Counted from the first letter of the stretch, positions 130 to 13,050 are shown. The stretch: DNA of 55,670 bases from an uncultured bacterium (GCA_903854195.1 CAINVO010000026.1:1-55670); one strand, 5' to 3'. The notes: generated by a model not told the origin, from the letters alone. Program-made: numbers and translations.

Positions 130-585
130 ATGTCAATACAACTAGATATCAAGGCGGGCATCAAAGATGCAATGATTAAAAAAGAAGAGATCAGACTATC
201 AGTACTACGCGGGCTTTCATCTGCTTTTACAAATGAACTAGTTTCACAAAAAAGAATGCCTCAGGAAGAACTTTCTGATGAAGATGCAATTAATGTTATC
301 CGTCGCGCACTAAAACAAAGAAAAGATTCTATTGAACAATTTGAAAAAGGCGGACGACCTGACCTAGCAGAAGGAGAAAAAGCAGAACTTGCAATACTTG
401 AAACATTTCTTCCAAAACTTATGAGCAAAGAAGAAATTCTAGTTGTCGTTGAAGCTAAGAAAGCTGAACTTGGCGAAATTGACCCTGCAAAAATTGGCAT
501 TTTCATTGGTGCTGTTATGAAAGAACTTAAAGGAAAAGCCGATGGTGCAGATGTAAAAGATGTTGTAGAATCATTACTCAGATAA
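130..585 (+). CDS. yqeY: GatB/YqeY domain protein
   Basis: 151 aa; IKDAMIKKEEIRLSVLRGL, KQRKDSIEQFEKGGRPDLAEGEKAELAILETFLP, IGAVMKELKGKADG match the YqeY pattern. Confidence 0.92.
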   Translation: MSIQLDIKAGIKDAMIKKEEIRLSVLRGLSSAFTNELVSQKRMPQEELSDEDAINVIRRALKQRKDSIEQFEKGGRPDLAEGEKAELAILETFLPKLMSKEEILVVVEAKKAELGEIDPAKIGIFIGAVMKELKGKADGADVKDVVESLLR

Positions 586-9175: not shown

Positions 9176-9742
9176 CTAAGATTTTTTGTCGGTGCTAAAT
9201 TTAGAAAGTATACCTAGAAAAAATTCGTCTCCTTCAGTTATATCTACAAAATTTTCTGGATGAAACTGTAGACCATATATTGGCAAGTTTATATGTTTTA
9301 TTGCCTCTGGTCCGTCGTCTGATTTTGCAAGCACACTAAATTCTTGAGGCATTTTATCAATAATCCATCTGTGGTTTTCATAAACCGATATTACTGGTTT
9401 ATGAAAACCAAAGTCATCAACAATATTAATACTCCTTATCCCCTTGTGTCTTGTCGTCAATTCCCTCAATGAACCACCGAAAGAATATGCTATCAATTCA
9501 GACCCAAAACAAATTCCAATAAGTGGTACCTTAGAAGAACGTATTAAATTAATTTCATCCTTAAAATCTTCATGTTGCCAGACAACAGAGGAATTACTGC
9601 TTCCCGAGAGAATAACTAAATCAAAATAATTCAAATCTGAATCTAAAATATTGTTCCACTTTTTTATAATCTCTATTCCAGGAATTAACTCCTGTAACTT
9701 ATCCAACAAGCTAGTTCCATTATCAATAAGTAGTACCTTCAT
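9176..9742 (-). CDS. class I glutamine amidotransferase, stand-alone
   Basis: LIDNG, GICFG (catalytic Cys), GLQFHPE (His-Glu). Confidence 0.9.
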   Translation of the reverse strand: MKVLLIDNGTSLLDKLQELIPGIEIIKKWNNILDSDLNYFDLVILSGSSNSSVVWQHEDFKDEINLIRSSKVPLIGICFGSELIAYSFGGSLRELTTRHKGIRSINIVDDFGFHKPVISVYENHRWIIDKMPQEFSVLAKSDDGPEAIKHINLPIYGLQFHPENFVDITEGDEFFLGILSKFSTDKKS

Positions 9743-9809: not shown

Positions 9810-9835
9810 TGGTGGCCCTACAGAGAGTCTAAACC
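9810..9835 (-). repeat. degenerate copy of the tRNA-Glu 3' end (att-like)
   Basis: TGGTGGCCCTACAGAGAGTC vs TGGTGACCCTACAGGGAATC at 12976: 17/20 identical, same orientation. Confidence 0.7.
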
Positions 9836-9850
9836 TTCTCGTGCTAACAC
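9835..9850 (+). repeat. 16-bp direct repeat, copy 1
   Basis: CTTCTCGTGCTAACAC, identical at 12956-12971. Confidence 0.85.
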
Positions 9851-9872
9851 TTAAGGGTTATAAAATAGCAAA

Positions 9873-10325
9873 TTACCCTCTTTGACATTTCACACAAAAA
9901 CCAAAAAATTCCAATGAGTGCTCTGAGATCGTTTTAAATTTTAACGAATATTTTAAGACCTTTTCACTCAGTTTATTAATTTCACAAATTTCAACATCCT
10001 CAATGTCACCACATTTTTTACATATCAAATGGTGATGGTGATGATCATTTAATTCAAAATAAGTTGTATCTCCTCTTAAATCAACCCTCTTAAGTATTCC
10101 TTTTTCTTCAAAAGATTTTAATGTTCTGTAAATAGTCGCTGCATCAAGCTTGGGTTTTTTAATGTGTTTGGAAATAAACTCTACATTTAGTGGAGCGTGA
10201 TACTTTGAGAAAATTTCTAGAATAGAAATACGGCCATGAGTTATCTTATACCCTCCTTCTTTGAGCAACTCTAAAAACTTCTCATTATCTATGTTATTTA
10301 CAGTATTTCCTTTAACTTTTTTCAT
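9873..10325 (-). CDS. Fur-family transcriptional regulator (Zur/PerR-like)
   Basis: KITHGRISIL, ATIYRTL, HHHHHLICKKCG, FGFCVKC. Confidence 0.92.
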   Translation of the reverse strand: MKKVKGNTVNNIDNEKFLELLKEGGYKITHGRISILEIFSKYHAPLNVEFISKHIKKPKLDAATIYRTLKSFEEKGILKRVDLRGDTTYFELNDHHHHHLICKKCGDIEDVEICEINKLSEKVLKYSLKFKTISEHSLEFFGFCVKCQRG

Positions 10326-10344
10326 GAATGAATACTACAACAAA

Positions 10345-10422
10345 TGCAACTGGTTTGCAACAACTTGACACCGCATCATGAAGGGTTTACACTGCTTTCA
10401 GAAATGCAAATAAATTGCATTT
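10345..10422 (+). promoter_or_regulatory. promoter TTGACA-17-TACACT flanked by two TGCAA-N5-TTGCA operators
   Basis: boxes at 10345-10359 and 10405-10419 (second extends to AAATGCAA-N5-TTGCATTT); -35 at 10365-10370, -10 at 10388-10393. Confidence 0.75.
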
Positions 10423-10444
10423 AGAACAAACATAAGCAACCAAT

Positions 10445-10651
10445 ATGAAAAGAACAATTATATACGACGGCGCGATGTACTGTGGAGAAGATGGATGTAG
10501 CTGCGGTTGTCCCGTAGCAGAACACTTGCCTGATGAAGGTGTGGTGGAGATCCATGACCCCAAAAAGCCTGAAAATGGCCGCACGAGGATGACTGTGACT
10601 GAGTACAACACTCTCATCAAAAATGCCAAGCCTGTGACAAGCAAGGCGTAG
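10445..10651 (+). CDS. small Cys-rich protein
   Basis: 68 aa, C-x4-C-x-C-x-C motif, directly downstream of the operator/promoter. Confidence 0.75.
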   Translation: MKRTIIYDGAMYCGEDGCSCGCPVAEHLPDEGVVEIHDPKKPENGRTRMTVTEYNTLIKNAKPVTSKA

Positions 10652-10742
10652 GCCCCTCTCCAAACATAGAGATTGTGTCGTAAAACATCAACCCCTTGTC
10701 TCAATGACCTGGGGTTGTTTTTTAAAATTAATTAATAAAAAT

Positions 10743-11579
10743 ATGAGAATTGCATTTGTTGGAAAAGGAGGAAGTGGAAAAACAACACTCTCTGCCCTAT
10801 TCGCACAACACCTATCCAAATCCAAAAAACCTGTATTAATTTTTGATGCAGATTTAAATATTCATCTACCTGAACTTATGGGTCTCAAAGACTTGATATC
10901 TCCAGATATGCACATTTCTAAACAAGAGGTGTCTACATCTATAAAAAAGTATCTGATTGGAAAAAATGAAGAAATAAAAAACTTGAGTGATCTCAAAAAA
11001 ACAACACTCCCGGGTGAAGGCTCAAACCTCATTAACATGAAAAATCTTGAAGAAAGTATCTTAAGGCCTTACTTGGCACAAGAAGACAATCTTTATCTGG
11101 CTGTGGTGGGAACATACGAGGATGAAAAAATTGGCAAAAGTTGCTATCACGGAAATCTGGTCATCTTTGAAAATATTTTAAACCACCTTATAGATAATTC
11201 TGGATATGTTGTAGCAGACATGGTTGCTGGTGTAGATGCTTTTGCCAATACTCTTCACTCTCAATTTGATGTACTCGCTCTAATTGTTGAACCTACAAAA
11301 AGAAGCATCGAGGTTTTCGAACACTACAAACATTTAGCAGAGCAAAGTAATGTTCATAGAAACCTTTTTGTTATTGCTAATAAAATAAGAAGCGAGGCTG
11401 ATAGAAAGTTTATAGACGAACACATTCCAAAAGAGCAATTTATAGGTTACTTTGAAGAATCTGAATACTTAAGAAACACAGAGCAAACATCCTCACCTTT
11501 GGATATAAATTCCTTAGAAAACGAAAATATAAACCTTCTTGAAAAAATAAAAAATACTCTGGAAAAAATTGCTGCCTAG
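10743..11579 (+). CDS. CooC/AcsF-like P-loop ATPase (MinD/ParA superfamily)
   Basis: MRIAFVGKGGSGKTT deviant Walker A, DAD, DMVAG, ANK; ATG 10743 preferred. Confidence 0.85.
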   Translation: MRIAFVGKGGSGKTTLSALFAQHLSKSKKPVLIFDADLNIHLPELMGLKDLISPDMHISKQEVSTSIKKYLIGKNEEIKNLSDLKKTTLPGEGSNLINMKNLEESILRPYLAQEDNLYLAVVGTYEDEKIGKSCYHGNLVIFENILNHLIDNSGYVVADMVAGVDAFANTLHSQFDVLALIVEPTKRSIEVFEHYKHLAEQSNVHRNLFVIANKIRSEADRKFIDEHIPKEQFIGYFEESEYLRNTEQTSSPLDINSLENENINLLEKIKNTLEKIAA

Positions 11580-12817
11580 TGACCGTGTGAATGCCCGTGA
11601 CTGTGTCCCGCATGTTCTAAGGCGTGCATTTCTTCCTTAACAATATCTTTATCTTTAGTTGAAGTACCTCCATTCTTTCCCTTCCCTTTCCTAGTTAAAA
11701 GCCAAACTGAAACCATTGTAGTAATAGGTACCGCGAGCACTAAACCAATACTTCCAATCATTGTTCGTACTATTTCTGTAGAGAATATCTCTCGGTTTAT
11801 TATCATCCACACGCTGGTTGAAGATGACTGTGAAAACAAAAGCAAAAGCGGCAACGATACACCAACATATGCAATAGCGAGTGTGTTAACTAAAGCCCCT
11901 ATATGTTCACGACCTATTCGAATAGCTCTTTGATATATTTTTGTTTTATGAACATGTGGGGCAATGCGAAGAAGTTCTTCCACAGATATTGCTTGACCGA
12001 TGGATATGTCATAAAGCACACCGAGAAGTCCGATCACGATGCCTCCTATCAACAGTCCCATGACATCTATATGCCCTTGAGCATTTAAACTAACATTTAC
12101 CACATCCTCTGAACTATACCCACTAAGTCTTGTAAAATACACAGACCAATAGGCCAGTAACCCTGTGAAGGAAACTGTCAGTATCATTCCGAGAACAGCC
12201 GATGTGGTCGTTTTATTGAAACCATGAGTAATATAAGAACCGACAACTATAATCAAAGACGACACACCGATAGTCACAAGTAATGGCGAGTATCCATGTA
12301 AAATTCCAGGCAAAAGAACATAGAGAATGAGAAGGAGGCTTCCCACCAAACTTACAATTCCACGAATTCCCTGAATGCCGCCAAAAATCAAAACCACCAA
12401 CAAAAACAAACCAACTATAATCATAACTTGGGGAAGTCTGTACGGCTCATCGACAGAATAATAATTAACACCATCAAGAGAACCGGTGGTGTGATTCAAA
12501 TAAAAAACTTCTCCAACTTTTAAATTTAAAAAGTCATTGTCTACAGTTATAACTTTATCTTTTTCATCACCCTCAAGAATTTTAACTTTTATTGTTTGAT
12601 TACTATGTGCTGTATCTGTGCCCGGAATATTTTTCATTTCGTGACTTATGATCTCTAGGACCTGAGCTTTCACTATTACCTGCTTATCAGGAACAACCTC
12701 CGTACCTTGGTCTGTAGATGATGAGTTTGTATTTTGAGCACGAACAAGACTAAATGATGAAAACATCACAATTACAAACATAATGGAAAATATGGCCAGA
12801 TTTTTTTTCATGTTCAT
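11576..12817 (-). CDS. YibE/F-family membrane protein with His-rich tail
   Basis: GVLYDISI, IGREHIGALVNTLAIAYVG, EIVRTMIGSIG; C-terminus HAGHSHGHSHGH. Confidence 0.9.
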   Translation of the reverse strand: MNMKKNLAIFSIMFVIVMFSSFSLVRAQNTNSSSTDQGTEVVPDKQVIVKAQVLEIISHEMKNIPGTDTAHSNQTIKVKILEGDEKDKVITVDNDFLNLKVGEVFYLNHTTGSLDGVNYYSVDEPYRLPQVMIIVGLFLLVVLIFGGIQGIRGIVSLVGSLLLILYVLLPGILHGYSPLLVTIGVSSLIIVVGSYITHGFNKTTTSAVLGMILTVSFTGLLAYWSVYFTRLSGYSSEDVVNVSLNAQGHIDVMGLLIGGIVIGLLGVLYDISIGQAISVEELLRIAPHVHKTKIYQRAIRIGREHIGALVNTLAIAYVGVSLPLLLLFSQSSSTSVWMIINREIFSTEIVRTMIGSIGLVLAVPITTMVSVWLLTRKGKGKNGGTSTKDKDIVKEEMHALEHAGHSHGHSHGH

Positions 12818-12955
12818 ATATTTTAGCTTTTGAGGCGCAGTTTGTATACCATCAGTGAACTTATTGCAAATCAAAAAAACAAATCCCCTTTCTTGCAGGT
12901 TCGACTCCTTGAAGGGTACACGATTTTTATTTTTTAAAAACGTTTAAAAATAAGG

Positions 12956-12971
12956 CTTCTCGTGCTAACAC
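12956..12971 (+). repeat. 16-bp direct repeat, copy 2
   Basis: identical to 9835-9850, 4 nt from the tRNA 3' end. Confidence 0.85.
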
Positions 12972-12975
12972 GTGA

Positions 12976-13050
12976 TGGTGACCCTACAGGGAATCGAACC
13001 CTGATTTAAGCCTTGAGAAGGCTCCGTCCTAACCGTTAGACGATAGGGCC
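12976..13050 (-). tRNA. tRNA-Glu(CTC)
   Basis: cloverleaf GGCCCTA..TAGGGTC acceptor, anticodon arm GAGCC-TTCTCAA-GGCTT, T arm CAGGG-TTCGATT-CCCTG, encoded CCA. Confidence 0.96.

Follow-up and report, generated by a model that had tools for sequence, protein, structure and literature searches.

CooC is a nickel insertase. CooC1 of Carboxydothermus chelates metal with a Cys-x-Cys motif that lies at the dimer interface (PMC3792862). Zinc metallochaperones of the ZigA, YeiR, ZagA and ZNG1 type belong to the COG0523 family of G3E GTPases, genes of which are found in Zur regulons (PMC2770081). S. coelicolor Nur (PDB 3eyy), a Fur-family regulator, has a nickel site formed by His70 and His72 in the S1-S2 sheet together with His126 (PMC2691836). 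We describe here a compact four-gene locus (positions 9873-12817). It lies in a stretch of 55,670 nucleotides (the window; GCA_903854195.1 CAINVO010000026.1:1-55670) from an uncultured bacterium. The stretch is contig C26; the genome to which it belongs comprises 45 contigs and 814 kb, as is usual in size for Patescibacteria, and has an estimated completeness of 94%. The four genes are read as a self-contained, mobile metal-starvation module for uptake and allocation, most likely of zinc, and we give this reading a probability of about 0.55.

All four open reading frames (ORFs) were confirmed at the positions given by an earlier note, which had been made from the sequence alone. They encode a Fur-family metalloregulator (9873-10325, minus strand, 150 aa; Pfam FUR, 2.4e-26, 92.7 bits against a curated cut-off of 23.1), a DUF397-like small protein (10445-10651, plus strand, 68 aa), a CooC-family SIMIBI ATPase of a Cys-x-His subfamily (10743-11579, plus strand, 278 aa; Pfam CbiA, 9e-13) and a YibE/F membrane protein (11576-12817, minus strand, 413 aa; Pfam YibE_F, PF07907, 9e-64, 215.7 bits over profile positions 2-241 of 241). 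The earlier assignments (Fur-family regulator, cysteine peptide, CooC-like ATPase, YibE/F) were correct, and every metal-ligand motif quoted for the four genes is present in the translations. The earlier note knew of no described system of this composition; likewise, no paper was found on it, nor on CooC-like ATPases in zinc regulons.

The ATPase had been called from 10704; the conserved start is M14 of that ORF, at 10743, since 130 of 131 homologs begin at the corresponding residue. The closest PDB relative by sequence is CooC1 (3kje; phmmer, 2e-11). With a 74-sequence family profile the same entry was matched at 3.2e-28 over the full length (1-251), the next match being MinD at 7e-12, over the P-loop only; MinD, ParA and ArsA are all more remote than CooC1. 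An AlphaFold model with a predicted local distance difference test score (pLDDT) of 91.9 gave 3kje as the top Foldseek match, with template-modelling scores of 0.67/0.73. The deviant Walker A motif GKGGSGKT (10761-10784, plus strand) is invariant in the 131 homologs. A Cys-Tyr-His motif (11142-11150, plus strand) aligns exactly on the Cys-Tyr-Cys of CooC1 in both the phmmer and the profile alignments, with Cys conserved in 131/131, Tyr in 129/131 and His in 131/131 homologs; H54, E156, H161 and D164 (numbered from the 10704 ORF) are almost invariant. At E <= 1e-3 there are over 1,800 homologous proteins. Their distribution is patchy, with a homolog at 1e-30 in only 12 of the 401 genomes sampled from the phylum; named homologs come from 'Patescibacteria group' and 'Candidatus Paceibacteria' records. 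No NCBIfam model came near its cut-off for the ATPase.

The ATPase shares with CooC/CooC1 and AcsF the SIMIBI fold, the deviant Walker A motif and homology over the full length, and its metal-ligand motif stands where CooC1 has the metal site of the dimer interface (PMC3792862). It differs from CooC in having Cys-x-His instead of Cys-x-Cys, and from the CooC/AcsF systems in its Fur-family control and in its neighbours, which are ZIP, ZnuA-type, COG0523 and YibE/F genes and not coo or acs genes. As judged from these comparisons, the ATPase is a true CooC relative in a distinct, unnamed sister group with a predicted change of the metal site. The earlier label 'CooC-like' is therefore kept, since CooC1 is the best match by sequence, profile and fold, with the qualification that the protein is not canonical, its Cys-x-Cys being replaced by an invariant Cys-Tyr-His.

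A further difference from CooC and AcsF concerns clients. A genome search for cooS, acsB and NiFe-hydrogenase genes was run, and no Prismane/carbon monoxide dehydrogenase (CODH; PF03063), CdhC/acetyl-CoA synthase (ACS; PF03598), NiFe-hydrogenase large subunit or urease alpha subunit was found in the 94%-complete genome; each of these searches gave matches in control genomes. The ATPase can thus be called an orphan without a CODH client, as had been supposed. The genome search also gave no ATPase paralog, COG0523 gene, ABC-3 permease or pyridoxal phosphate (PLP)-rhodanese gene.

The 68-residue protein carries the cysteine cluster C13-x4-C18-x-C20-x-C22 followed by P23, and also H27. A word-based homolog search with this sequence alone returned only itself, and a search with six close sequences found only near relatives, on genome and metagenome contigs. 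An exhaustive HMMER search gave a family of 52 representative clusters, nearly all of 50-80 aa. In a 38-sequence alignment C22-P23 is invariant and C13, D38, P39, P42, G45 and E53 are nearly so, with C18 and C20 present in a subset only. The AlphaFold2 model (pLDDT 89.7) consists of four strands and a C-terminal helix, the cysteine cluster being placed in the loop between strands 1 and 2; a Foldseek search of the PDB with this model gave nothing significant (best E = 2.2). The ratio of nonsynonymous to synonymous substitution rates (dN/dS) is 0.08-0.15. The closest pair gives 0.08; beyond it synonymous sites are saturated, with proportions of differing sites of 0.70-0.89 (synonymous) against 0.13-0.27 (nonsynonymous). 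From the family and these rates the peptide is evidently a real gene under purifying selection. A leader peptide or a chance ORF was rejected, because it has a family, a predicted fold and a low dN/dS.

In the clade of the window the peptide adjoins the ATPase at L001, L003/L008, L009 and L011 (loci are designated by L numbers). At L069 a distant relative, P0166 (CGSGDCNCGCP), comes immediately behind a Fur gene and the gene of a Cys-Phe-His ATPase, with an exact copy of the operator described below ahead of them, and the deepest split of the ATPase tree separates the L069 ATPase from the clade of the window. The pairing therefore occurs in two distant ATPase lineages and in two gene orders, which is the best evidence that both proteins work together. 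All ATPase-linked peptides have a fuller cysteine cluster, CxCxCP or CCxxCP. Two candidate marks of the pairing were rejected: four cysteines as such, as the standalone relatives P0170 and P0167 also have four in another pattern, and loss of the C-terminal tail of the ATPase, as the L069 ATPase retains it. Like HypA beside HypB, UreE beside UreG and CooT/CooJ beside CooC, the peptide is a small metal-ligand protein encoded beside a dimerizing metallochaperone nucleoside triphosphatase (NTPase), presumably its partner. It is unrelated to HypA, UreE and CooT/CooJ in sequence or fold, being DUF397-like with no significant PDB match.

The surroundings of the ATPase were compared at 19 other loci, eight from assemblies and 11 from the phylum sample; L001-L011 stem from freshwater and groundwater. 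A Fur-family gene adjoins it in 16 of the 19, down to 34% ATPase identity, and a PALP-rhodanese fusion, often translationally coupled, stands beside it in nine. YibE/F is linked to the module at seven loci and the peptide is beside the ATPase at five, all in the clade of 72-77% identity. All four genes occur together at L001, L009 and L011. The co-occurrence check that had been proposed for this locus thus found both the complete set and the core Fur-ATPase adjacency elsewhere. Among remote loci, Pfam-confirmed neighbours of the ATPase are ZIP (L030, L036), an ABC-3 permease (L031), a COG0523 GTPase (L035) and an ArsP_1/DUF1980 pair (L032). In the ATPase tree the peptide-linked clade (support 100/99) is nested among PALP-rhodanese-linked ATPases, as sister to L004 (95/92). 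This nested position implies that the form in the window is derived, the PLP-rhodanese gene having been lost and the small protein recruited; by this phylogeny the wider module is that of Fur, ATPase and PLP-rhodanese, and the four-gene form is a variant specific to one lineage. The operons of that type in other Patescibacteria have the same ATPase subfamily, regulator and operator and often YibE/F; the window genome differs from them in having no PLP-rhodanese gene and in carrying the small cysteine protein ahead of the ATPase.

Several further gene types were seen at the relatives' loci. At L006 (4407-4880, minus strand) and L007 (4440-4919, minus strand) a membrane protein of 157-159 aa with many conserved histidines and no Pfam family lies between the operator and fur-yibEF; it may be a further metal-handling membrane component. 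At L007 (6004-6393, plus strand) and L030 (7201-7545, minus strand) a protein of some 129 aa stands between the ATPase and PLP-rhodanese genes; it has a DGHHR motif and, judged by eye, is ParB/sulfiredoxin-like. The archaeal serine kinase SerK has a ParB/sulfiredoxin-like fold; if SerK-like, this protein could be a source of O-phosphoserine for the PLP enzyme. A third group of loci has, next after the ATPase, a gene for a protein of 266-277 aa (L032, 6603-7430; L033, 5485-6318; L036, 7128-7928; all minus strand), which may be another class of ATPase partner; the L036 copy, the one scanned, has no Pfam match. Longer operons (L034, 406-5286; L035, 1171-8685; L037, 486-5219) contain the ATPase, a type-III PLP decarboxylase, PALP-rhodanese, in some cases a methyltransferase, and a class-V aminotransferase. 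They look like a small-molecule, perhaps chelator, pathway; that of L035 is preceded by an operator-controlled COG0523 GTPase.

Two palindromic operators had been proposed between the regulator and the peptide-ATPase unit, and both were recovered by inverted-repeat and exact-pattern searches. Box 1 (10344-10360) is the 6-5-6 palindrome aTGCAA-CTGGT-TTGCAa, with the core TGCAACTGGTTTGCA at 10345-10359. Box 2 (10402-10422) is the 21-bp palindrome AAATGCAA-ATAAA-TTGCATTT, with 8-nt arms of 100% complementarity and the core TGCAAATAAATTGCA at 10405-10419. Between them a promoter scan found a promoter-like site for the peptide-ATPase unit, TTGACA-17-TACACT (10365-10393, plus strand; 10/12 matches). 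Box 2 lies just downstream of its -10 element, over the likely transcription start. A candidate fur promoter was picked by eye at 10332-10360 on the minus strand (-35 TTGCAA at 10355-10360, 17-nt spacer, -10 TAGTAT at 10332-10337); it has 8/12 matches, which is under the scan threshold. Box 1 overlaps its -35 element, and its -10 element ends 6 nt before the ATG, which would imply a leaderless transcript. Between the peptide and ATPase genes RNA folding of the spacer gave a hairpin, AACCCC...GGGGTT, followed by TTTTTT (10690-10723, plus strand). It is a possible partial terminator; such a hairpin could attenuate read-through and leave an excess of peptide over ATPase. The spacing between the two genes ranges from 14 to 114 nt among relatives.

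The 814-kb genome has three sites with the exact pattern TGCAA-N5-TTGCA, where 0.93 would be expected. Two of these are 60 nt apart in the fur/peptide intergenic region. The third (contig C29:48746-48760) was rejected as a member of the regulon since it lies inside an ORF (48156-48896) for a 246-aa membrane protein, and is probably a chance match. Within this genome the exact-pattern search therefore places the operator only ahead of the module itself. Among the relatives, an exact operator is present in the regulatory region of L004, L006, L007, L009, L028, L031, L032 and L036 and ahead of the COG0523 gene of L035, and a copy with one mismatch in L003, L011, L033 and L038.

A stricter form of the operator, TGCAACNNNGTTGCA, was searched for in the 401 genomes of the phylum and was found in 46, against seven for the reversed control. 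Classification by Pfam of the 38 ORFs that start next to 30 operator sites gave 13 FUR, four ZIP, three ZnuA, three cobW + CobW_C (COG0523) and two YibE/F, the rest occurring once each. In composition this set matches a Zur regulon (compare PMC2770081), and on its content the regulon of the operator is of the zinc type (Zur-like). The Cys-x-His ATPase resembles the COG0523 GTPases as a nucleotide-driven putative metallochaperone under Fur-family derepression with importers alongside, and the two occur together in one operator-controlled cluster at L035. It differs from them as a SIMIBI MinD/CooC-type ATPase against a G3E GTPase, in its C-x-H motif against CxCC, and in having a dedicated partner, either the small cysteine protein or PLP-rhodanese.

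The regulator is the sole clear Fur-family gene of the genome, a second tblastn match on contig C3 being borderline (E 0.003). Its motifs are HHHHH followed by CKKC, and FCVKC. As in Nur and Zur, a Fur fold is combined with a structural Cys4 site, here C102, C105, C144 and C147 in two CxxC pairs, and with a His-rich motif (H95-H99) ahead of the first CxxC; the operator also matches the 6-5-6 Nur box tTGCaa-N5-ttGCAA (PMC2691836). The predicted regulatory site, mapped by eye on a PerR alignment and an ortholog alignment, is H43, E91, H97, H99 and D110. In the mapping by eye on PerR, Leu92 takes the position where the sensing-site cysteine typical of Zur is expected, and this ligand is probably missing from the regulator. 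The translation has no histidine between Y66 and H95, so that the Nur-type nickel site, and with it the histidines that distinguish Nur, cannot exist. The regulon around the operator is likewise of zinc type and not the nik/sodF content of Nur. On the operator regulon and on the impossibility of a Nur-type nickel site, zinc is rated the most likely metal, with moderate confidence. The earlier note had cited the insertion of Ni by CooC/AcsF ATPases; judged from the other genes under the same operator across the phylum, zinc is likelier than nickel.

The YibE/F protein has, by its hydropathy profile, a signal peptide, an outside domain of about 100 aa, seven hydrophobic segments, a Lys/Arg-rich exit and a tail. 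From the seven segments that follow the outside domain and the Lys/Arg-rich exit, the His-rich C-terminal tail HAGHSHGHSHGH (11579-11614, minus strand) is predicted to lie in the cytoplasm. His-rich tails are found on all seven other ATPase-linked YibE/F proteins. Two operator-controlled YibE/F genes (L065, 346-1452; L068, 201-1391) have no such tail, and no ATPase is present in their 3-kb loci. This distribution, in small numbers, fits a docking or hand-off role for the tail. No functional literature on the YibE/F family was found.

The borders of the module carry the marks of insertion. A repeat search found 29-nt direct repeats at 9830-9858 and 12951-12979 (83% identity, spacing 3121 nt), between which lie exactly the four module genes and no integrase or recombinase. 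A tRNA-Glu(CTC) gene identified with ARAGORN (12976-13050, minus strand) has its 3' end facing the cassette. A decayed copy of this end (17/20; 9811-9830, minus strand; TGGTGGCCCTACAGAGAGTC against TGGTGACCCTACAGGGAATC at 12976-12995) is proposed as an attR-like far junction. The order tRNA end, repeat, module, repeat and tRNA-end copy is what a repeat-core-repeat circle would give after a crossover in the tRNA 3' end. Joining position 9831 to 12975 puts fur and yibEF adjacent and in the same direction, as in L001, L009 and L011, so that the gene order in the window is a circular permutation of that of the relatives. In the same-genus genome G401 (97% complete) the tRNA-Glu gene and the gene to its right are syntenic, the genes on the module side are different ones, and the ATPase is absent from the entire genome. 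From a conserved anchor gene (window 130-585) to the tRNA the distance is 12.4 kb in the window against 6.2 kb, with different genes, in G401. The flanking GATase gene (9176-9742) has no ortholog in 30 relatives, and the comparison with G401 is a same-genus one and not that of an exact empty site. Read from these borders, the four genes are a predicted integrase-less insert at the 3' end of tRNA-Glu(CTC). Large serine recombinases, 66% identical to each other, are encoded directly beside related modules on two unrelated contigs (L004, 2044-3360; L006, 1387-2706), and are candidate enzymes for mobilizing modules of this type.

For the mechanism proposed below we infer the metal, the direction of transport, the Cys2His2 site, the order of hand-off and the clients. 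When metal is sufficient, the metal-loaded Fur-family dimer would bind both 6-5-6 operators, one at its own promoter and one at the start of the peptide-ATPase unit, and both would be off. At metal scarcity the divergent promoters would open and the peptide would be made, followed by the ATPase once transcription passes the hairpin and T-run. YibE/F would be the membrane component, probably an importer, whose cytoplasmic His-rich tail presents the metal. On dimerization of the ATPase the Cys-Tyr-His pairs would build a Cys2His2 site across the interface and take up the metal, and ATP binding and hydrolysis would serve to pass it on, the ATPase cycling between the YibE/F tail, the peptide and clients. 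The DUF397-like cysteine protein would be the dedicated partner of the ATPase, either as a metal holder or acceptor or as an adaptor to clients. Of the earlier proposal of a metallochaperone or storage pair, the storage part is disfavoured, because a Fur-type repressor opens its genes at metal scarcity and the four cysteines of the peptide, two of them conserved, lie in a folded domain.

Several observations weigh against a zinc-starvation module. The metal is deduced from neighbouring genes only, and ZnuA-type, ZIP and COG0523 proteins are not confined to zinc but can work for Mn, Fe or Co as well; none of the three ZnuA-type proteins in the census has a His-rich loop. The operator has the 6-5-6 form of the box of the nickel sensor Nur and not the n-1-n form of the Zur box (compared with PMC2691836). 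The predicted sensing residues of the regulator, mapped by eye, are His, Glu, His, His and Asp, a set of the Fur/PerR type without the cysteine of Zur, and among the NCBIfam models the regulator scores best with those of PerR and Fur and worst with that of E. coli Zur. As regards uptake, YibE/F of the window is not behind the operator, having only a TTGCAA half-site upstream, and with a separate ZIP gene on contig C43 the importer may be a protein other than YibE/F. Three distant peptide relatives are encoded singly, in unrelated contexts where no ATPase is near.

In an unlikely alternative, the module responds to iron, manganese or peroxide and the ATPase is an Mrp/Nbp35/ApbC-like scaffold or carrier of a metal-sulfur unit, iron-sulfur or other; in the relatives PLP-rhodanese and desulfurase genes would provide the sulfur, and the cysteine peptide would be the acceptor here. 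The regulatory-site residues are Fur/PerR-like, and PerR and Fur gave the best NCBIfam and PDB scores; in the PDB, PerR, Fur and Zur are matched about equally well. There are known SIMIBI ATPases in which a cluster is bridged at the dimer interface, and 3kb1 and 6oby are among the PDB matches of the ATPase. The ATPase of relatives is translationally coupled to PALP-rhodanese, with a class-V aminotransferase also present at some loci. The PLP-rhodanese partner, however, is far nearer to PDB entries 8h4h/8h4q (3.7e-90), which we take to be aspergillomarasmine A synthase, than to cysteine synthases (1.6e-30). This points to a product of the chelator type and not to sulfur mobilization; compare the fungal PLP enzyme Fda4, which contains a rhodanese-like domain and condenses O-phosphoserine and alanine with formation of a C-N bond (PMC12751119). 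Moreover, the ATPase has one Cys and one His per monomer and no CxxC of the Mrp family, and the presence of COG0523 and ZIP genes in the regulon speaks for zinc.

A nickel or cobalt module is distinctly unlikely. It would have a Nur-like sensor, an ATPase and peptide that insert Ni or Co into an unrecognized client, and the His-tailed YibE/F as transporter. In its favour are the nickel insertase function of CooC and the His-rich tail of YibE/F, such tails being typical of nickel-handling proteins. The operator also equals the Nur box (PMC2691836), but the counterparts of His70 and His72 are missing from the regulator, and the genes that flank the 30 operator sites are ZIP, ZnuA and COG0523, with no nik-type or sodF-type gene among them. 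In addition, the nickel-binding Cys-x-Cys is altered in every member of the ATPase family, and the genome has none of the nickel enzymes searched for (CODH, ACS, NiFe hydrogenase and urease).

It is improbable that the peptide, instead of carrying metal, is a regulatory partner of the Fur-family repressor or of the ATPase, like DUF397 proteins for XRE regulators in Streptomyces. Joint action with a neighbouring regulator is known of DUF397 proteins (PMC6262351, PMC10364602), five of the 38 peptide relatives have a weak match to DUF397 (PF04149; best 4e-4), and the standalone relatives in unrelated contexts would also suit such a role. The window peptide itself, however, has no Pfam match, DUF397 included, even at E <= 10, and no NCBIfam family; no XRE gene is present at the locus, and the fuller cysteine cluster is common to all ATPase-linked peptides. 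Least probable of all is a response to metal excess, with the peptide as a metallothionein-like buffer and YibE/F as an exporter: the cysteine cluster and the His tail would agree with it, but Fur-family repressors normally leave DNA at low metal, the same operator controls uptake-type genes (ZIP, ZnuA), and the peptide lacks metallothionein-like traits, having four Cys in 68 residues, a confidently predicted beta-sheet fold and only C13 and C22 conserved family-wide.

The zinc-starvation module preferred here admits a more speculative extension, which we regard as possible but doubtful: the Cys-x-His relatives of CooC may be new ATP-driven allocation chaperones for zinc, or for metals in general, of ultra-small bacteria. 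They would do the job of COG0523 with an interchangeable ligand partner (a chelator-making PLP-rhodanese enzyme or the DUF397-like cysteine protein), be fed by the His tail of YibE/F, and travel as an integrase-less, circular, tRNA-targeting cassette. If this is true, a second, unrelated NTPase lineage would join the few zinc metallochaperones. Roles would be given to two families of unknown function, YibE/F, for which it would be the first, and the candidate phyla radiation (CPR) branch of the DUF397-like proteins. The module is compact (a 278-aa ATPase, a 68-aa peptide and a defined operator), and its small soluble proteins are fit for biochemistry. The structure of the cassette gives a further example, in Patescibacteria, of mobile genes that have no resident integrase. 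The use of either a small cysteine protein or a chelator-synthase-like enzyme as partner of the ATPase suggests a general principle, the ATPase-assisted hand-off of metal to a ligand, and the module would show how metal scarcity is handled in genomes of about 0.8 Mb.

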